Assembly: GCF_000026545.1 (NCBI RefSeq)
Contig: NC_011601.1
Origin: Escherichia coli O127:H6 str. E2348/69
GTDB lineage: Bacteria; Pseudomonadota; Gammaproteobacteria; Enterobacterales; Enterobacteriaceae
Length of the DNA: 64,000 nucleotides
Reading direction: 5' to 3' (one strand)
The notes under the pieces were generated by a model, which saw only the letters and a program-made list of their open reading frames with translations, was not told the origin of the DNA and ran no database searches. The first letter of the stretch is position 1, and each line of letters opens with the position of its first letter. Both the position numbers and the translations under genes were made by a program. Positions 19,456 to 28,435 of the stretch are shown one piece after another.

Positions 19456-20736
19456 TTACATTGGGAAGATAAAAACAGCGCCTGCACAAAGCGCCAGAAT
19501 GCGGATGAGATACATTGGTACAGAGAACACCCAGAATTCGGGAAGTTTGTATTTCCCCATTCCGAGGATCATGGCTGGCATTCCGTCAATAGGCATATAG
19601 CCGCCGTTCCAGCCTGAAATCACCACCGCAATCGCTGCAGCGGTCGGGTTAAGCCCAAGGCTGGTACAGGCGGCAATGGCGATGGGGGCAAAAATATAAA
19701 CAGACCCCATATTCGAACCCGTGAAGGTGGCGCAGGTACTGGTAAGCAAAGCAAAGGCGACAATAAATACAAATGGTGAGACGCCAGAACCGAGCACACC
19801 TGCAACGGCATCGCCAACCATCGCCGTAAAGCCGGTGCCCGCCAGTGCATCAGCTACACCGATCACCCCCGCCATCATTAAAATGACCGGCGCTCCCATA
19901 TGATCGCGAACTTCTTTAAAGTCCAGTACATCGATCATCAGAACAAACGCACCCGCAAGACCCGGAATAACGAAGGCGATATTTCCCAGAATGTTCATTA
20001 GCATCATGCCGATAACGCTGACAGCGAATGCGGCAATAGTGCAATATTCTTTCCAGGCAGGAAGGGCGTTAAACGTTTCCTCGCGTGCCGCCAGCGCATC
20101 CTCGGAAGCATCCGCAATGGGATGATCCGGAAGAAAACGGTAGGCAATAAGACTCCATGCGAGGAACGCCGCTGACATGATGAGATTCACCAGCGCAAAG
20201 CGCCCCATCGAAATCTCCTGATGAAAACCCGCGGTTTCGAGTACGGTCGCCGTAACGCCAAAGAGAAGCGCGAGATTGATAGGAAGAAGCGGGTGGTTGG
20301 TGGCAAATCCCAGGGGCATCATTAATTTCGATGTTGGTAGCTTTTTACTGTACGGAATGGTGGATACCAGCGACAGAATCAGCACGTAATAACCGGTCGC
20401 GCCGGTGCCTGCAAGACTGGCACCCAGCATAACAATGACTAACAACAGCCCGTAGCTGCGGTAACTGCCTTTATTGACCAGGCTTATCATCGCAGATTTA
20501 ACGTTGCTGATAAGCCGGGTTTTTTGTAGCGCTGCCATGACCACCATAAACCCTGCAATCATCACCACGCTTGGATTGACGAATCCGGCAAAAGCCTGTT
20601 GAACGGTCGAAAGTCCCGAGACAACCAGCAATAAACACGCAAGCAGTGGCGGTGCGCCAAATGGCATTTTGTCCGACATGATCAGCACGATCATCAGGAC
20701 CAGTATTCCTAATGCCAGGATCATTTCCATTGTCAT
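19456..20736 (-). CDS. Ion-transporter (IT) superfamily anion permease (ArsB/NhaD/SLC13-like), last gene of the island's leftward operon
   Basis: The track ORF 19456..20982 is trimmed to the ATG at 20736 (MTMEMILALGILVLMIVLIMSDK), which is preceded by AAAGGAGAGA. The extension would overlap the upstream gene. The 426-aa protein is hydrophobic throughout, with a central hydrophilic loop (PDHPIADASEDALAAREETFNALPAWKE) separating two halves. That layout is typical of IT-superfamily carboxylate/anion carriers. Family assignment is by composition and pattern only. Confidence 0.7.
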   Translation of the reverse strand: MTMEMILALGILVLMIVLIMSDKMPFGAPPLLACLLLVVSGLSTVQQAFAGFVNPSVVMIAGFMVVMAALQKTRLISNVKSAMISLVNKGSYRSYGLLLVIVMLGASLAGTGATGYYVLILSLVSTIPYSKKLPTSKLMMPLGFATNHPLLPINLALLFGVTATVLETAGFHQEISMGRFALVNLIMSAAFLAWSLIAYRFLPDHPIADASEDALAAREETFNALPAWKEYCTIAAFAVSVIGMMLMNILGNIAFVIPGLAGAFVLMIDVLDFKEVRDHMGAPVILMMAGVIGVADALAGTGFTAMVGDAVAGVLGSGVSPFVFIVAFALLTSTCATFTGSNMGSVYIFAPIAIAACTSLGLNPTAAAIAVVISGWNGGYMPIDGMPAMILGMGKYKLPEFWVFSVPMYLIRILALCAGAVFIFPM

Positions 20737-20749
20737 TTTTTCTCTCCTT

Positions 20750-21220
20750 TTAGGCTTCCAGCATGTCGCGCGGTACCTTAAAGACCGCTTTGCGTACTGA
20801 CGTAGCCGCGCCAATCGCGCACAGCGCCTGGTGAGGTTCCTCAGGCATAAAGACGGCGAAATCACCGGGGTGTAGAGTGATGGCGACACTGTTTTCAGGG
20901 GATGGGGCGATAAACAGATCGGGCTTACGTTCTTCATCGTTTTCGCGAGCGATGGGCCGCGTTCCCGCATTAATGCCCTCACAACCAGTAATCACCACCT
21001 GGATATCGGCCCACAGATGGTGATACTCCGTATGGCGGAGTTCGGCGGGTTGCGTGTCTGAAGTTCCCAGCGTGCAGAACCACCGACATCCTTCAGGTTG
21101 CCAGCGACCGTCCTCTCTGGCGGATAACGCCGATAACGAACACTCCGGGCACAGCAGAATATTTCTCACCCAGGCGGGAAGCCCCGCCAGCGACAAATGG
21201 TTGAGATTACCGATAATCAT
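20750..21220 (-). CDS. YhcH/YjgK/YiaL (DUF386) family protein, NanQ-like putative ulosonic-acid anomerase
   Basis: 156 aa. The N-terminus MIIGNLNHLSLAGLPAWVRNIL and the C-terminus GDFAVFMPEEPHQALCAIG...KAVFKVPRDMLEA parallel E. coli YhcH (MMMGEVQSLPSAGLHPAL ... GMFAVFMPGEPHKPGCVVG...KVVVKVKADLMA, from memory). An ATGA overlap with the upstream BNR gene indicates coupling. Confidence 0.75.
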   Translation of the reverse strand: MIIGNLNHLSLAGLPAWVRNILLCPECSLSALSAREDGRWQPEGCRWFCTLGTSDTQPAELRHTEYHHLWADIQVVITGCEGINAGTRPIARENDEERKPDLFIAPSPENSVAITLHPGDFAVFMPEEPHQALCAIGAATSVRKAVFKVPRDMLEA

Positions 21221-22386
21221 GATGCCTGCCCCTTAACCCACTCGGGGGAGATGCGCACGTACTTGATGGCCTGACGCCACCAGGTGTAAGCGATATGTAG
21301 CGTACCGTCCGGGCTTTGTTTGATGCTGGGGTAGGAGAACTCACGATTTAGCTTTTCCAGGGAATTGTTGGTCATGCAGTTGCCGTCGCCTTCATCGAGA
21401 TTGCGCCGCCACGGCCAGCTTTTCCCACCATCGGCAGAAATCGCTACCGTCATCGGCGCGCGTGGGGCCCCCCAGAAAGCGGAGCGTCCGACGGCTGTCG
21501 GTTCTTTGCGGCTGTCGTCGCCATCGTCGATTTCGTCATAAAGCGACGCGCGACGTTCTACTGCGCCTGCCGCACTCATCGCGTTGTACACCAGCGCCAG
21601 TTCGCCGCTGGCAAGCGTCGTTACCTGAATAGACGAATTGTTGTTGGGCAATTCGGTAGCTTGCGGCACCGACCAACTCTCGCCGTTGTCCACTGAATGG
21701 CTGATATAGATGTTGTCTGCCCAACGGCTGCGAAAGAGAGCAACCAACGTACCGTCGTGCAGCATTGTGATATTCATATGAACGCAGCCGAGACTTTGCG
21801 GCACCTCGACATCGCGCCATGAGTGACCACCGTCAGCGGAAATTTTCACTGCGCTGATATCATCATTGCCGACCCATTTTTCGCCGGGTTGGGTACGGCA
21901 ATAAAAGACGGGAAGCAGCCAGTTACCGTTATCAAGCACCGTGATCGGCTGGCGAATGAACGTGCCGGGTTTATCGAGCAGGGTGGCAATCTCGCCCCAG
22001 GTTTGCCCAAGGTCGTCAGACTTACGGTAGCGGACGATGGCCGTGTCCTGATTACCGGATATTTGTGCGGTCCATAGCAGCCACAGCACGTTATCCGGCG
22101 CGAGAAACAGCACCGGGTTTTGCTCTGAACGCGTGTCATCGTGGGAAAGTTTGACCGCATCGCTCCACTGCGTTCTGCCAGCGGGCAATCGTGATCCCCA
22201 GACAGAAATATCGGCAATACCTTCCTGTGTTCCCGCAAACCAGACGCACATTAATGCGCCATCCGGCATTGGCAGAATATTCGCCGCGTGGTTTTGCGGG
22301 CAGGACGAGGGCAGCATGGCGGTAAGCACATGCGAATCGTTTTCGGATGGACGGATGACGCCGTCACGAATAAGGGCTACAGACAT
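21217..22386 (-). CDS. BNR/Asp-box repeat beta-propeller protein, sialidase (exo-alpha-sialidase)-like, no signal peptide
   Basis: 389 aa with four S-x-D-x-G-x-(S/T)-W Asp boxes: SDDLGQTW (aa 123-130), SADGGHSW (183-190), SVDNGESW (231-238) and SADGGKSW (317-324). The N-terminus MSVALIRDGVIRPSEND has no hydrophobic signal sequence. GGAG Shine-Dalgarno before the ATG. Confidence 0.75.
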   Translation of the reverse strand: MSVALIRDGVIRPSENDSHVLTAMLPSSCPQNHAANILPMPDGALMCVWFAGTQEGIADISVWGSRLPAGRTQWSDAVKLSHDDTRSEQNPVLFLAPDNVLWLLWTAQISGNQDTAIVRYRKSDDLGQTWGEIATLLDKPGTFIRQPITVLDNGNWLLPVFYCRTQPGEKWVGNDDISAVKISADGGHSWRDVEVPQSLGCVHMNITMLHDGTLVALFRSRWADNIYISHSVDNGESWSVPQATELPNNNSSIQVTTLASGELALVYNAMSAAGAVERRASLYDEIDDGDDSRKEPTAVGRSAFWGAPRAPMTVAISADGGKSWPWRRNLDEGDGNCMTNNSLEKLNREFSYPSIKQSPDGTLHIAYTWWRQAIKYVRISPEWVKGQAS

Positions 22387-22421: not shown

Positions 22422-23180
22422 TTAATGCGAGTGCGATTCATGCGTTTCGATCAATGTCGAAACTTTTTTATTTCTTCTTTCACGGATAATATTGAGTGTC
22501 TCAACACTTAATGAGAAAAATATCGCGAAGTAGAGATACTCTTTGGCAATATGAATGTTGAGACTATCGGCAACCAGCAATACACCGACAAACAATAAAA
22601 AGGTTAACGCCAGTATTTTTATTGACGGCGTGGCGTTAACGAAATCACCAATTGTTTTCGCCGCAAACATCATGACACCGACGGCAATCATTACGGCGGC
22701 AATCATGATAAATATATGCTGAGAAAGGCCGACGGCGGTGATCACCGAATCCAGGCTAAACACGATATCGAGCAGCATTATCTGTACAATGGCACCGCAC
22801 AACGACAGTTGCCGCGATCCGCTGCCATGTTCGTCTTCCTGCGCGGGCGACAGCTCTTCGCGTATCTCCTGTATCGCTTTATAAATCAGGAACAGCCCGC
22901 CCCCGAGCAGAATCAACGTGCGGAACGAAATCTCCAGCGTCAGCACGGTAAAAAGCGGCTGGGTAATATGTGAAAGCCACGCAATGGATATCAGCAATAA
23001 TATCCGCATAATCATCGCGCAGCTTAAACCCAGTTTACGCGCCATATTTTGTTGTGATAACGGAAGTTTTGCCACCACCAGTGAAAGAAAAATAATATTA
23101 TCCACCCCAAGAATAATTTCCAGAAAGGTGAGGGTAATTAAAGTGAGCCAGATATCTGGCTGCATAAACCACAAAAACAT
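22422..23180 (-). CDS. TerC-family integral membrane protein (resembles the TerC domain of YoaE/YegH, without a CBS/CorC tail)
   Basis: 252 aa. MFLWFMQPDIWLTLITLTFLEIILGVDNIIFLSLVVAKLP closely parallels the YoaE N-terminus (...[27 protein letters not shown], from memory). The second DxxxS motif region is LLDIVFSLDSVITAVG. Confidence 0.75.
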   Translation of the reverse strand: MFLWFMQPDIWLTLITLTFLEIILGVDNIIFLSLVVAKLPLSQQNMARKLGLSCAMIMRILLLISIAWLSHITQPLFTVLTLEISFRTLILLGGGLFLIYKAIQEIREELSPAQEDEHGSGSRQLSLCGAIVQIMLLDIVFSLDSVITAVGLSQHIFIMIAAVMIAVGVMMFAAKTIGDFVNATPSIKILALTFLLFVGVLLVADSLNIHIAKEYLYFAIFFSLSVETLNIIRERRNKKVSTLIETHESHSH

Positions 23181-23239: not shown

Positions 23240-24127
23240 TTAATTAATGTTATAATGACGAATAATTTGTTGAATCTCGCTGATCTGTTCAGGCGTGAAA
23301 TTAACCGCGTAGCGGCTATCACCAACATCATGCCCCATAAGCTGCAACGCTTTTTTCACCGCAGCCGGGGAGAATGCTACTTTATAAAGATCGGTACGCA
23401 GGCCCGTTACACTCTCCTGTGCTTCATAAGACCCTTCAATATCACCGGCATGGAAGCGAGACCAGATGGCATTGATTTCTCGCGGCGCGATGTTGGCGAG
23501 CCCAGAGATACAGGCTGAACATCCCTCGACAAACCCTTTATGGATCAGCGAATCCGGGCCGTTGAGCACATTAAAGCCGTCAATGTCGCGCACCGCATCG
23601 AGAAAACCCTTCAGGCTTTCGTCGCTTCCGGCGCTGTCTTTAATCCCAATGATATTGGGGTGCGACGCCAGAGCACGCGCGGTTTCTGGCTGGATCGTAT
23701 TGCCAGTGCGGGCCGGGATGTTATAGAGAAACATCGGAATGCTCAGTGCGTCGGCAATTGCGCTGTAATGCGCAATCAACTCTTCCTGTTTCAGCGGTAC
23801 GAAGTAAGGGGCAATGACCGACACGGCATCTACGCCAAGTTTTTCAATCTGCTGACCCAGACGAATCGTTTCGCGCGTAGAGATCTCGCCAATGTGTGCC
23901 ACGACCGGCGCACGACCAGCCACTTCATCCACGCAGGTTTGCGTAACGCTGAGCTTCTCCTGTTCATTCAACACAAAAAATTCGCCGTTGGTGCCGCCGC
24001 AAAAAATCGCGTTACCCGCTTCCAGTTGACGATTCACCTGCACTTTTAACGCCGGGATATTCAGACTGCCGGTCGCGGTAAACGGGGTGACGATAGCGGT
24101 TAATACACCTTCAATGGTTTTCGGCAT
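23240..24127 (-). CDS. DHDPS/N-acetylneuraminate-lyase family class I (Schiff-base) pyruvate aldolase
   Basis: 295 aa with the family signatures GGTNGEF (GxxGE), LYNIP (catalytic Tyr) and IIGIKDSAGS (Schiff-base Lys). It starts 3 nt after the upstream ADH stop. Confidence 0.8.
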   Translation of the reverse strand: MPKTIEGVLTAIVTPFTATGSLNIPALKVQVNRQLEAGNAIFCGGTNGEFFVLNEQEKLSVTQTCVDEVAGRAPVVAHIGEISTRETIRLGQQIEKLGVDAVSVIAPYFVPLKQEELIAHYSAIADALSIPMFLYNIPARTGNTIQPETARALASHPNIIGIKDSAGSDESLKGFLDAVRDIDGFNVLNGPDSLIHKGFVEGCSACISGLANIAPREINAIWSRFHAGDIEGSYEAQESVTGLRTDLYKVAFSPAAVKKALQLMGHDVGDSRYAVNFTPEQISEIQQIIRHYNIN

Positions 24128-24130
24128 GAT

Positions 24131-25288
24131 TTATTCCTTAAATTGATGTTGCGGAAACAGTGTTTGGTAAATGGCCTGTACGTCCTGTAGATCAAGCTGG
24201 CACGGCACATTGTTCATAAGGCGCTTCACGTTCAGTGCCGCCTCGCTAAGAGAGGCAATATCCTCTGGCGGTACGCCGAGATCTGCGAGATTGTTGGGTA
24301 GCTTGAGTTGATTGACTAATGCCTGTAACCAGGTCACCAGGGCATGAGATTTTTCTTCCGCGCTCAGGGCGGTTTCCGCATCGGGAATGCAATCCCAGAC
24401 CCGGGCAAATTTCTCGACCGCCCAGGGGCGAACAAACGCCATGCACGGCGCCAGCAAGATGGCATTCGCGACGCCATGCGGCAGATGATATTTGCCACCT
24501 AACGGGTAGGAGAGCGCATGAACGAGATGCGTGCCCGCATGGGTTATCGCTACGCCGCCATAGTAAGACGCCCACAGCATTTCCAGTTTTGCGCGCAGAT
24601 CCTGAGGATCGTTCACGGCGGGTTGAATGTGCCGGAAAAGTTTACTTAACCCAGTCAGCGCCGCGTTATCGCTGACCGGATTTGCCACGGTCGCGGTAAA
24701 ACACTCCAGTAAGTGGCAAAGAGCATCAATGCCCGTGGACGCCGCAATATGCGCAGGCATGCTGGTGGTCAGTTCCGGGAAAAGCGCCACATAGTCTGGT
24801 AACAGCATCTGGGAAATAATACCCACCTTCGTGCTTTGCTCAGGGATTGCCAGAATCGCATTCGGCGTGGCTTCTGAGCCGGTTCCGGCGGTTGTAGGAA
24901 TCAACCATGATTGCACCCGCTGAGTTGGTTTTTCACCCGCAAGCAGCGCATCCAGCCCCGGAGATTGTGGATGGCAAAGCACCGATAGCAGCTTTGCCAC
25001 ATCCAACACGCTGCCACCGCCGATCCCGACCACCACATCAAAAGAGGCATCGCCAAGGACATCCATTAGCTGGCGCACATCATGATGCGTGGGCTCTGCG
25101 GGCACATTATCGATAACGTTAACCTGCGGGCAGTGCTGTTCCAGTAAGGCGCGAATCTGCTGCACACCGTCGAGCTGCGCAATATTACGGTCAGTGACCA
25201 GCAGCATTTTTCTGATGTCGGGTAAGAGCGACGTCAGGGAAGGGATAGCGCCTGCGCCGCTCAGTATCGTGCTATTGATAATTACCAC
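24131..25288 (-). CDS. Iron-containing (group III) alcohol dehydrogenase family oxidoreductase, first gene of the leftward operon
   Basis: 385 aa with a GTG start preceded by AGAGAGGT. GIGGGSVLDVAKL is the NAD(P)-binding motif. His-rich metal motifs are IDALCHLLE and HAGTHLVHALSYPLGGKYHLPHG. Confidence 0.8.
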   Translation of the reverse strand: MVIINSTILSGAGAIPSLTSLLPDIRKMLLVTDRNIAQLDGVQQIRALLEQHCPQVNVIDNVPAEPTHHDVRQLMDVLGDASFDVVVGIGGGSVLDVAKLLSVLCHPQSPGLDALLAGEKPTQRVQSWLIPTTAGTGSEATPNAILAIPEQSTKVGIISQMLLPDYVALFPELTTSMPAHIAASTGIDALCHLLECFTATVANPVSDNAALTGLSKLFRHIQPAVNDPQDLRAKLEMLWASYYGGVAITHAGTHLVHALSYPLGGKYHLPHGVANAILLAPCMAFVRPWAVEKFARVWDCIPDAETALSAEEKSHALVTWLQALVNQLKLPNNLADLGVPPEDIASLSEAALNVKRLMNNVPCQLDLQDVQAIYQTLFPQHQFKE

Positions 25289-25306
25289 AAATAACCTCTC
25301 TTCTGG

Positions 25307-25322
25307 TGATTGAATTCAATCA
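25307..25322. promoter_or_regulatory. Perfect 16-bp palindrome, candidate operator (O1) for the island DeoR regulator
   Basis: TGATTGAATTCAATCA lies 19 nt upstream of the ADH GTG start, within the likely 5' UTR of the leftward operon. Confidence 0.5.
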
Positions 25323-25412
25323 TTCAAAATGCCGTAGCCTACGTAACATGGTCTAATTTTATAATTTATTCGAGTGATTAATAACTTGAGCTTGCTCACA
25401 TTTAATCAATTG

Positions 25413-25428
25413 TGATTGAATATAATCA
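25413..25428. promoter_or_regulatory. Imperfect palindrome with the same half-sites, candidate operator (O2) overlapping a TATAAT hexamer for the rightward operon
   Basis: TGATTGAATATAATCA has the same outer half-sites TGATT/AATCA as O1. The TATAAT at 25421..25426 lies inside it. Its centre is 106 bp from the O1 centre. A third GTGATTAAT copy sits at 25374..25382. Confidence 0.45.
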
Positions 25429-25454
25429 TTATTATCATAAAACAACCTGGAGTG

Positions 25455-26693
25455 ATGATGGAAAAGGGAATCACTAAGCCGAGCATTCTCGTCGTTGCCG
25501 ATGATTTCACGGGAGCCAACGACGCGGGGGTAAGCCTGGCGCAGGTGGGGCATACAGTTGATGTGGCCTTTGAAATGCCTTATCACGGTGATGCCAGCGT
25601 ATGGGTGATTAACAGCGACAGCCGGGCGATGGATCCTAAGCTGGCGGCGATGAAAATAACCTCGCTGATGAGTCATCTCCCTCTGGCGAATAACCCGCCG
25701 CTCGTGATTAAAAAGATAGATTCCACGCTTCGAGGCAATATCGGCGCAGAAATTGAAGCCCTGATGAAGGCATGCGGTATAACGGGCGCAGTGATTGCCC
25801 CCGCATTTCCTCAGGCGGGAAGGACCACAGTGGCCGGTGAGTGTTGGGTAAACGGTGTGCGGATAACGGAAACCGAGTTTGCCAGCGATCCGAAAACCCC
25901 GGTATTGAGCGCCCGAATTGCGGACATCATCCGGTTGCAGACGGCCATTCCATGCCAGCCCGTTACGGTTTCTCAGCTCAGCCATTTGTCTTATGAGCAA
26001 CCGTGGATTGGCGTGATAGATGCGCAGACGGACAGCGACCTGGATCGCATCGCTGCCGCTGTGATGCAGGCTAAACAACCGCTACTGCTGGTCGGCTCCG
26101 CTGGTATTTGTGATGCCGTTGCCCGGCGCTCCGCGATTATGCCGCCACCCACCGTGCTGGCCATTATTGGTTCAATGAGCGAAATCGCTCAACGGCAGAT
26201 CGCCACACTGCATTCACACCCACGTATCACACAGATATACGTCGATGTTGAACACATTCTGGCAGGCAATGCCAGTGACTATGACGCGCGTATTGTGCAG
26301 GCCTTGCAGAAAGGCGACCACTGCATTGTCCACACCTGTAACGATTCTGTAGCAAGGCATCAGATCGACACCCTTTGCCAGCGTTGGCAGATGAGTCGCG
26401 CTGCACTTGGGGAAAAAATTTGTCGGTTTCTTGGCGAACTTACCCGGCAAGTTCTGCTTCGCACAATGCCCGATGCGCTTTATCTCTCTGGTGGCGATGT
26501 CGCAATGGCAACAGCCAGTGCGTTAGGCGCGACCGGGTTTCGTATTACGGGGAAGGTGGCGCAATGCGTTCCATATGGTCACTTTCTGGGCGGCGTCTGG
26601 TCCCGTTCGGTGATGACGAAAGCCGGTGGGTTTGGCGATGAGACCACGTTGCATCAGGTTCTGAATTTTATCGAGGAGAAGCGTAGTGAATAA
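25455..26693 (+). CDS. DUF1537-family four-carbon acid-sugar kinase (DtnK/OtnK-like)
   Basis: The track ORF starts at a TTG (25416) within the operator region. ATG 25455 or 25458 follows GGAG at 25448..25451. The N-terminus ILVVADDFTGANDAG is the hallmark ADDFTGA motif of this kinase family. The product is about 412 aa. Confidence 0.75.
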   Translation: MMEKGITKPSILVVADDFTGANDAGVSLAQVGHTVDVAFEMPYHGDASVWVINSDSRAMDPKLAAMKITSLMSHLPLANNPPLVIKKIDSTLRGNIGAEIEALMKACGITGAVIAPAFPQAGRTTVAGECWVNGVRITETEFASDPKTPVLSARIADIIRLQTAIPCQPVTVSQLSHLSYEQPWIGVIDAQTDSDLDRIAAAVMQAKQPLLLVGSAGICDAVARRSAIMPPPTVLAIIGSMSEIAQRQIATLHSHPRITQIYVDVEHILAGNASDYDARIVQALQKGDHCIVHTCNDSVARHQIDTLCQRWQMSRAALGEKICRFLGELTRQVLLRTMPDALYLSGGDVAMATASALGATGFRITGKVAQCVPYGHFLGGVWSRSVMTKAGGFGDETTLHQVLNFIEEKRSE

Positions 26694-27672
26694 CATTATT
26701 GCGGTAACGATGGGCGATCCGGCGGGTATTGGCCCGGAGATCATTATTAAATCCCTGAGCGAAGCCGGGCTTGCTGGTACCCCGGTGGTGGTGGTGGGCT
26801 GTGTGCGCACGCTGCGACGTATTATGGCGATGAATATCACGCCGCAGGCAGAGTTACGCGTCATTCAAAAGGTGTGCGACGCCCACTTTGCTCCCGGCGT
26901 GATTAACGTGATGGATGAGCCTCTGGCTAACCCCGATGCGCTGACACCTGGTGTGGTACAGGCTGCGGCAGGCGATTTAGCGTATCGCTGTATCAAACGT
27001 GCAACGGCCCTGGCCTTATCAGGCGAGGTGAAAGCCATAGCCACTGCGCCGTTGAATAAAGAAGCGCTGCATCTTGGCGGGCATAACTATCCGGGGCATA
27101 CGGAATTGCTGGCCCATCTTACCGGCAGCAAAGAGTACGCGATGGTGCTCTATACCGATAAGCTCAAGGTTATCCATATTTCGACTCACATCTCACTGCG
27201 TAAATTCCTGGATACTTTGAATGGTGAAAGGGTCAAAACGGTTATTCGAGTTGCGAACCACTTCCTGAAACGTGTCGGCATTGAGCGTCCGCGTATTGCC
27301 GTGGCGGGTGTAAATCCACATGCAGGGGAACACGGTTTATTCGGCACTGAGGAAATCGAGATTATCGCACCTGCGATTGAAGCAATGCAGGCCGAAGATA
27401 TTGATGTTACTGGCCCGTGCCCGCCAGATACCGTGTTCATGCAGTGCCATGAAGGGCTATTCGATATGGTGGTGGCTATGTACCATGATCAGGGGCATAT
27501 CCCTTTAAAACTGCTTGGATTTTATGATGGGGTGAATATCACCGCCGGGTTGCCATTTATTCGCACTTCTGCCGACCACGGCACCGCGTTTGATATTGCC
27601 TGGACAGGAAAAGCCAAGTCTGAGAGCATGGCAGTTTCCATCCAGTTAGCAATGCAGATTTCGCGAGAATAA
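26686..27672 (+). CDS. PdxA-family NAD-dependent dehydrogenase (PdxA2-type, 4-phospho-D-threonate/4-hydroxythreonine-4-phosphate dehydrogenase family)
   Basis: 328 aa. The GTG start overlaps the kinase stop by 8 nt and is preceded by GAGGAG. Visible motifs are [15 protein letters not shown], the HTELLA and NPHAGE metal-ligand regions, and YHDQGHIP. Confidence 0.8.
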
Positions 27673-27673
27673 A

Positions 27674-28435
27674 ATGAAGGGATATAACCGGTTAGAGCAG
27701 ATCATGGATTACCTGAAAAGCCATAATCTGGTCACCGTTGATGAGCTGGTGGCGGTAACCAATGCGTCGCCGGCTACGATTCGTCGAGACCTGATAAAAC
27801 TCGATGAGCAGGGTGTTATCAGCCGTACACACGGCGGTGTGACCCTCAACCGGTTTATTCCTACCCAACCGACTACCCATGAGAAAATGCAGCGCAGCCT
27901 GGCGGAAAAACATGCTATCGCCAGCGCAGCGGCGTCAATGGTCAAAGCGGGGGATTCCGTCGTCCTTGATGCCGGTACGACAATGATTGAACTTGCGCGG
28001 CAGATTACACATTTACCGCTTCGCGTGATCACCAGCGACCTGCATATCGCGCTTTTTTTGGCTGAATTCAAGCAAATTGAAGTGACGATTATCGGCGGAC
28101 GTATCGACGACTCCAGCCAGTCCTGCATTGGCGAACATGGTCGTAAATTGCTGCAAAATACCTGGCCGGACGTGGCATTTTTAAGCTGTAACAGCTGGGA
28201 TCTTGAAAAGGGTATTACAGCACCCACGGAAGAGAAAGCCGCACTAAAACGCGATCTTATCGCGCATGCTTCGCGCAAAATTCTCCTGGCTGACAGCTCA
28301 AAATACGGTTCATGGTCGCTGTTTAATATCGCGCATCTTAATGAACTGACAGAGATTATTACGGATAGTCAGCTTGATGGGCAGACGCGTAGAACGCTTG
28401 CGTCCTTGTCGACGCGTTTAATCATAGCCGACTAA
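27674..28435 (+). CDS. DeoR-family transcriptional regulator
   Basis: 253 aa with an N-terminal HTH ([50 protein letters not shown]) and a C-terminal DeoR sugar-phosphate sensor domain. It starts 1 nt after the PdxA-family stop. Confidence 0.85.

Follow-up and report, generated by a model that had tools for sequence, protein, structure and literature searches.

A sialidase-fold gene of Escherichia coli in an island with D-threonate catabolism genes: a candidate route for the pectin sugar acid Dha

What might a leaderless sialidase-like protein do inside an E. coli cell? The question is raised by a gene on the minus strand of the window, which is the entire 64,000-nucleotide stretch of the E. 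coli O127:H6 str. E2348/69 chromosome that was analysed. The gene (21217..22386) encodes a 389-residue protein of the sialidase fold (BNR_2/COG4692), termed here the BNR protein, and is part of a 9.3-kb island located between nagE and glnS.

Fold, leader and active site

The BNR protein matches Pfam BNR_2 (PF13088) over residues 43-365 (E=3.5e-65; 220.6 bits, where the cut-off is 31.4), and the alignment spans all 277 profile positions. The match passes the gathering threshold and, on this score, is far beyond chance. COG4692 ('predicted neuraminidase') has been assigned to the E. coli orthologue (PMC12928451). A regular-expression scan of all 389 residues recovers the four canonical Asp boxes (S-x-D-x-G-x-x-W) that a sequence-only reading of this DNA had pointed out. 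These are SDDLGQTW (residues 123-130; 21997..22020, with the DNA checked by hand), SADGGHSW (residues 183-190; 21817-21840), SVDNGESW (residues 231-238; 21673-21696) and SADGGKSW (residues 317-324; 21415-21438), all on the minus strand. An AlphaFold (AF2) model run on a 42-sequence alignment has a pLDDT of 94.7, and a single-sequence model (pLDDT 38) was discarded. The protein shares with GH33 both the six-bladed beta-propeller and the Asp boxes.

The translated open reading frame begins with MSVALIRDGVIRPSENDSH, as the earlier reading had quoted. Among the 9-residue Kyte-Doolittle windows that start within the first 40 residues, none exceeds 1.6, and across the entire sequence the highest 19-residue value is 1.2. 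Motif and hydropathy scans of the protein find no twin-arginine motif, lipobox context or hydrophobic h-region. Moreover, residues 21-24 and 31-39 form strands of the modelled propeller, and close homologues share the same start position. The claim that the protein has neither signal peptide nor lipobox is thus borne out by hydropathy, by the motif scan and by the modelled strands at residues 21-39, and the Sec or Tat signal or lipobox of a secreted or lipoprotein sialidase is lacking. At the other end of the gene, positions 21217-21220 read tcat on the plus strand, which is ATGA on the coding strand, so the BNR stop overlaps the start codon of a YhcH/NanQ-like gene. The ATGA coupling to that gene, and the placement of the coupled pair in an E. 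coli chromosome, therefore stand as first described.

Active-site positions were assigned from sequence and profile alignments to the GH33 structure 4fj6, to GH181 and, by hhalign, to an approximate NEU2 sequence. Conservation was counted in 42 diverse homologues with identities down to 31%. Two arginines of the GH33 triad are apparently retained. The second is Arg219, which aligns with R234 of GH181, R237 of NEU2 and an Arg of 4fj6 and is kept in 41 of the 42 homologues; its codon lies in the Arg219-Ser220-Arg221 stretch (21724..21732, minus strand), in which Arg221 is an extra arginine that is invariant (42/42). The third is Arg309 (21460..21462, minus strand), just before the last Asp box, which aligns with R305 of GH181 and an Arg of 4fj6 and is present in 40/42. 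The candidate catalytic nucleophile is Tyr352 (21331..21333, minus strand), within the segment FSYPS at residues 350-354, where Tyr352 occurs in 38 and Pro353 in all 42 homologues. Tyr352 aligns with Q350 of GH181, the residue that replaces the GH33 nucleophile Tyr (PMC10067855), which agrees with the original suggestion that FSYPS corresponds to the nucleophile region.

Other positions depart from GH33. The first triad arginine, normally in an (F/Y)RIP motif, is absent; in two independent alignments (4fj6 and NEU2) its place is taken by His33 of the motif N-H-A (codon cac, 22288..22290, minus strand), which is kept in 41/42 homologues. An IRP tripeptide at residues 11-13 had been likened to the RIP motif. 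This is evidently a chance resemblance because IRP does not align with the sialidase motif, and its arginine and proline recur in only 20 and 11 of the 42 homologues, respectively. Likewise, no conserved Asp is found among the homologues on the loop after the RIP strand, where GH33 has its acid/base. Glu55 (22222..22224, minus strand) aligns exactly with D207 of 4fj6 and adjoins D46 of NEU2, placing it at or one residue from the acid/base position, and it is Glu in 42/42; it is therefore the predicted acid/base. The partner of the tyrosine, a Glu in GH33, appears to be position 203, which is His in 25 and Gln in 17 of the 42 homologues and never Glu, and which shifts by two residues between the 4fj6/GH181 and NEU2 alignments. 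Finally, Arg371 (21274..21276, minus strand; conserved in 40/42) follows Tyr352 by 19 residues, the same spacing as between Y342 and E361 in Salmonella NanH, and is possibly a spatial stand-in for the lost RIP arginine.

The alignments thus suggest a rewired GH33 site, in which Tyr352, Arg219 and Arg309 are kept, and His33, Glu55 and His/Gln203 are substitutions. Of the sialidase catalytic residues that the sequence-only reading had left to an alignment, the tyrosine and two triad arginines are present, but other residues stand in place of the RIP arginine and the Asp acid/base and apparently also of the Glu partner, and as aligned the protein fails the defining GH33 signature.

Because several canonical catalytic residues are missing, and because enzymatically inactive BNR propellers exist, the protein might instead be a binding, scaffold or sensor protein without catalytic activity, an alternative that had been raised at the outset. 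We judge this very unlikely because active-site positions show little or no variation in homologues down to 31% identity, and because the gene has a dN/dS of 0.06-0.08, indicating strong purifying selection. The fixed slot of the gene, between transporter and catabolic enzymes in most of 80 species, also argues against a non-catalytic role. Judged by this selection and by 76-86% identity between orthologues of different genera, the gene is functional.

Neighbouring genes and distribution

The BNR gene is flanked by the YhcH/NanQ-like gene (20750..21220, minus strand; 156 aa; Pfam DUF386, E=2e-26) and by a gene for a TerC-family membrane protein (22422..23180, minus strand; 252 aa; Pfam TerC, E=4e-46). 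The YhcH-like protein belongs to its family at the level of TIGR00022 (97 bits against a cut-off of 45.5), falls short of the NanQ equivalog NF040884 (91.5 bits against 160), and a PDB search with it gives generic relatives only. Beyond it lies a 426-residue SLC13/CitMHS-type anion permease (19456..20736, minus strand, RefSeq start; Pfam CitMHS, E=3e-24, with a weak DASS match). On the other side of the TerC-family gene are a class I aldolase of the DHDPS/NanA family (23240..24127, minus strand; 295 aa; Pfam DHDPS, E=3.5e-61) and an iron-containing alcohol dehydrogenase (24131..25288, minus strand; 385 aa; Pfam Fe-ADH). The aldolase scores below the cut-offs of the dapA, nanA and KdgD equivalogs, and its PDB relatives (DHDPS, YagE and NanA) are generic. 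The same is true of the closest solved relatives of the dehydrogenase, which are methanol dehydrogenases, lactaldehyde reductase and 1,3-propanediol oxidoreductase.

A divergent control region (25289..25457) separates this operon from one on the plus strand, which begins with dtnK, encoding a D-threonate kinase of the DUF1537 family (25458..26693; NF047819, 533 bits against a cut-off of 450; also dtnK in RefSeq). It is followed by a gene for a PdxA2-type decarboxylating D-threonate 4-phosphate dehydrogenase that yields DHAP (26686..27672; NF002891, 680 against 583). Both NCBIfam equivalogs of D-threonate catabolism are therefore represented in E. coli; both enzymes pass these models in Yersinia and Pectobacterium as well, with a kinase score of 523 in Yersinia and, in Pectobacterium, scores of 613 for the kinase and 682 for PdxA2. 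The last gene encodes a DeoR/GlpR-family repressor (27674..28435, plus strand; Pfam HTH_DeoR and DeoRC), which probably controls both divergent operons. Neither nanK, nanE and nanT nor an aldehyde dehydrogenase gene is present in the cluster, and a promoter and terminator scan of the island gives counts equal to the shuffled expectation. Control by KdgR, the regulator of the pectin regulon, was also considered and finds no evidence: the divergent promoter regions of 54 loci contain no exact TGAAA-N4-8-TTTCA palindrome, and matches with one mismatch are scattered, sharing neither sequence nor position across genera.

The BNR protein is no peculiarity of E. coli: members of its large family, found in Enterobacterales, Bacillus, Propionivibrio, Pasteurellaceae and others, share 60-86% identity. 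COG4692 within BNR_2 is an uncharacterised, strongly conserved family. Pectinolytic or plant-associated taxa are over-represented among its hosts, for instance Pectobacterium, Dickeya, Erwinia, Pantoea, Rahnella, the K. oxytoca complex, Y. enterocolitica and the B. pumilus group. More distant homologues include one of 46% identity in a eukaryotic genome, adjoining an MFS sugar transporter, and a metagenomic one of 43% identity, accompanied by an Opp-type ABC importer and an esterase. Within E. coli, the island is all-or-none: 1047 of 5426 complete genomes (19%) carry it as a block. The carriers examined so far are ExPEC, AIEC and EPEC strains, and a 2026 study lists the island as an uncharacterised region common to seven model ExPEC/AIEC strains (PMC12928451).

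Related loci in 80 other species, found with a 13-sequence alignment, reveal which partners are conserved. The aldolase accompanies the BNR gene in 62/80 loci, the iron-containing alcohol dehydrogenase in 63 and a DeoR-family repressor in 57, and the YhcH gene follows it in 55. In 59/80 loci the aldolase, the dehydrogenase, the DUF1537 kinase and the PdxA-like gene are all within 9 kb of the BNR gene, in species that include Pectobacterium, Dickeya, the Klebsiella oxytoca group, the Bacillus pumilus group and Propionivibrio; the same cluster was seen in Yersinia enterocolitica, examined separately. This neighbourhood reaches as far as Firmicutes, to beta- and alpha-proteobacteria and to the metagenomic homologue of 43% identity. 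All aldolase and kinase genes are missing in 16/80 loci, of which 3 are on short or truncated contigs. The rest are mainly from Pantoea, with two from Bacillus, and such loci mostly keep only the symporter, the BNR gene and a short-chain dehydrogenase (SDR), with or without YhcH.

The transporters are interchangeable and of carboxylate types (SSF, SLC13/CitMHS, TTT and TRAP). An SSF symporter gene lies directly upstream of the BNR gene in 60/80 loci, in the slot that the TerC-family gene occupies in E. coli. The CitMHS-type permease, proposed to serve as importer where the cluster is of the E. coli/Klebsiella type, occurs in 10/80 and is directly upstream once, in a Pasteurellaceae genome; TerC occurs in 9/80, in every case with this permease. 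The SDR accompanies the BNR gene in 61/80 loci and is missing from the E. coli island. Its family searches return generic FabG-like matches, with no KduD-like signal.

These data bear on whether the BNR protein is a genuine exo-alpha-sialidase or KDNase that acts on Neu5Ac or KDN glycosides. RefSeq names such as 'sialidase family protein' and 'exo-alpha-sialidase' imply this activity, and the GH33-like fold, Asp boxes and NanQ-like and NanA-like neighbours are suggestive of it. However, we find this function hardly credible. By the alignments, none of the RIP arginine, the Asp acid/base and the Glu partner is kept; the protein lacks a signal peptide, and nanK, nanE and nanT are absent; the aldolase and YhcH-like protein are below the NanA and NanQ equivalog cut-offs; and in a single-sequence search the best PDB sialidase has an E-value of about 0.03. 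Also, the partner enzymes make D-threonate intermediates, which cannot be obtained by cleavage of Neu5Ac or KDN. The conserved partners are D-threonate pathway genes and not nan genes. The neighbourhood does fit the original idea of a substrate other than host sialoglycans, either a glycoside that is imported or a modified ulosonic acid.

A candidate pathway from Dha to D-threonate

Gene context and a stereochemical fit lead us to propose as substrate Dha, a rare sugar acid of plant pectin. Under this reading, to which we assign a probability of roughly 40%, the operon breaks down Dha via D-threonate, and the BNR protein performs a glycoside-cleaving first step. Under the standard naming rules for carbohydrates, a D-lyxo heptulosarate has the D-threo configuration at C5 and C6; therefore, aldol cleavage and reduction give exactly D-threonate. 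Kdo was rejected as a substrate because its aldol cleavage yields D-arabinose, from which D-threonate cannot be made. A 3-deoxy-heptulosonate mono-acid is less likely because it would produce D-threose, which requires the aldehyde dehydrogenase that the cluster lacks.

In the proposed route, a small 3-deoxy-2-ulosaric acid derivative would be imported by the SLC13-type permease, or by the SSF symporter in most other genera. The BNR enzyme would then cleave a ketosidic or equivalent C2-O bond in the cytoplasm to free the cyclic sugar acid. The coupled YhcH-like protein, a proposed anomerase or ring-opening helper, may speed anomerisation and ring opening, after which the DHDPS-type aldolase would release pyruvate and D-threuronate, a C4 aldehyde-acid. 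Reduction of the aldehyde by the iron-containing alcohol dehydrogenase would give D-threonate. On the strength of the curated equivalog models, DtnK would phosphorylate this product, and PdxA2 would convert it by oxidative decarboxylation into DHAP and CO2. The widespread SDR and the TerC protein of E. coli are given no role in this pathway, an observation that sits against the Dha reading. So do the lack of a KdgR operator in the promoter regions and the 16/80 loci without any aldolase or kinase gene.

Land plants carry Dha in their primary cell walls, and RG-II loses side chain D (Araf-Dha) when briefly heated. The RG-II fragments that Bacteroides secretes have no known users (bioRxiv 10.64898/2026.03.13.711244). 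In the literature searched, no catabolic route for Dha is described, and nothing links D-threonate, Dha, sialidase or COG4692 beyond the 2026 genome comparison (PMC12928451).

The Dha-containing disaccharide raises another possibility for the BNR protein, which might be a glycosidase for a non-ulosonic sugar, most plausibly a beta-L-arabinofuranosidase that frees Dha from Araf-beta1,5-Dha. Dha would in that case occupy the +1 subsite, held by the conserved arginines. Araf-beta1,5-Dha is itself labile to heat and acid, and we regard this possibility as quite improbable.

SSF, SLC13 and TTT transporters usually carry monosaccharide-sized anions, so these types sit awkwardly with a glycoside substrate and count against the main reading; if free Dha is imported, no glycosidase is necessary. 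Perhaps the BNR protein acts within the same pathway on a modified free monosaccharide, either hydrating a 2,3-unsaturated or intramolecular anhydro form or opening a lactone of the ulosaric acid, so that the normal keto-deoxy sugar is regenerated for the aldolase. Such a role would suit the small-anion transporters, with SSF directly upstream in most loci and SLC13, TTT or TRAP types in others. Both formation and hydration of 2,7-anhydro-Neu5Ac and Neu5Ac2en are known from relatives in GH33, and the structural and profile matches include the IT-sialidase 4x47 and NanC. The apparent replacement of the acid/base and tyrosine-partner residues is suggestive of changed chemistry, to which the frequently associated SDR could contribute by redox assistance. 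Nevertheless, the retained tyrosine and two arginines are equally compatible with ordinary ketosidase chemistry, E. coli keeps the BNR gene without the SDR, and a natural anhydro or ene form of Dha, or an enzyme producing one, is neither known to us nor found in the literature searched. On balance this alternative is fairly unlikely.

The outline of the pathway might also be correct and the substrate different. Curated models fix only its end, D-threonate. The imported keto-deoxy acid sugar, still split into pyruvate and a C4 unit, could be a different seven-carbon acid sugar, perhaps one not yet described, or a microbial or plant metabolite that carries a D-threo tail. The Opp-type importer and esterase beside the homologue of 43% identity, the MFS sugar transporter beside the eukaryotic one and the lack of a KdgR site in the 54 promoter regions are consistent with such a substrate. 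However, Dha is the only natural sugar known to us that yields D-threonate by aldol cleavage and reduction without an aldehyde dehydrogenase, and the host range fits pectin, so a different acid sugar is unlikely.

If the Dha reading is right, the nagE-glnS island would explain what becomes of Dha and also where D-threonate arises in nature, the DtnK/PdxA2 substrate, for which we know of no explained natural source. The island would then provide a private nutrient, derived from dietary pectin through Bacteroides or cooking, to E. coli strains that carry it and to pectinolytic Enterobacterales. It could be a niche-defining gut trait because it is all-or-none, occurs in about a fifth of complete genomes and is common to the seven ExPEC/AIEC strains. 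The presence of a sialidase-like enzyme, an aldolase, a reductase and DtnK/PdxA2 in one operon makes the fate of Dha and the source of D-threonate directly testable. Our analysis also corrects the widespread 'exo-alpha-sialidase' annotation, which wrongly implies that E. coli can desialylate host glycans.

Comparison with known systems

The GH33 exo-alpha-sialidases of Micromonospora viridifaciens (1EUR), human cytosol (NEU2, 1SNT) and Salmonella (NanH) are only 12-19% identical to the BNR protein. In contrast to them, the BNR protein has His33, Glu55 and an apparent His/Gln partner, the extra conserved arginines Arg221 and Arg371, and an acidic insertion of ~40 residues in blade 5, and its gene context is D-threonate catabolism and not the nan pathway.

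The best profile-to-PDB match (E about 2e-14) is the GH181 inverting sialidase Amuc_1547 of Akkermansia (8HLS, 8AXI). Like the BNR protein, GH181 is a divergent clan-E propeller that keeps two of the arginines and has lost the third, and it is nonetheless an ulosonic-acid glycosidase (PMC10067855). However, the BNR protein, a single domain of 389 residues, has Tyr352 where GH181 has Q350, and this places it outside GH181. In Bacteroides thetaiotaomicron, the GH143 Dha-hydrolase forms the N-terminal domain of BT_1020 (5MQS), a PUL-encoded periplasmic protein in which its five-bladed propeller is joined to a GH142 arabinofuranosidase. By contrast, the BNR protein is six-bladed, closer to GH33, leaderless and encoded in a catabolic operon. 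It does not belong to GH143. After GH181 and GH143, it would be a third example of a re-tooled sialidase scaffold. We suggest, tentatively and with the odds against it, that the BNR protein founds a new family of glycoside-hydrolase type in clan GH-E, marked by an active site rich in His, Glu, Tyr and Arg, and that the island is the first described pathway for Dha, a sugar of rhamnogalacturonan-II.

The steps that follow resemble two pathways of known function. As in the NanA-NanQ (YhcH) system of E. coli, a cyclic 2-keto-3-deoxy acid would be released or anomerised and then split by a class I pyruvate aldolase, although the island's aldolase and YhcH-like protein are paralogues that fall below the equivalog cut-offs. 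As in the GarL-GarR-GarK route for glucarate and galactarate, the aldehyde-acid fragment would be reduced and the resulting aldonic acid phosphorylated, but here the C4 fragment would proceed through DtnK and PdxA2 to DHAP and not through glycerate kinase.

The D-threonate locus of Salmonella presumably contains only a transporter, kinase, dehydrogenase and regulator. The DtnK/PdxA2 pathway was described in that organism (Zhang et al. 2016 PNAS, as cited in PMC10971088), and the kinase and dehydrogenase of the island pass the NCBIfam equivalogs built on it. Compared with the Salmonella locus, the island adds a divergent operon of five to six genes upstream, the sialidase-like gene included. 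The position of this additional operon beside DtnK/PdxA2 suggests a natural source for D-threonate.

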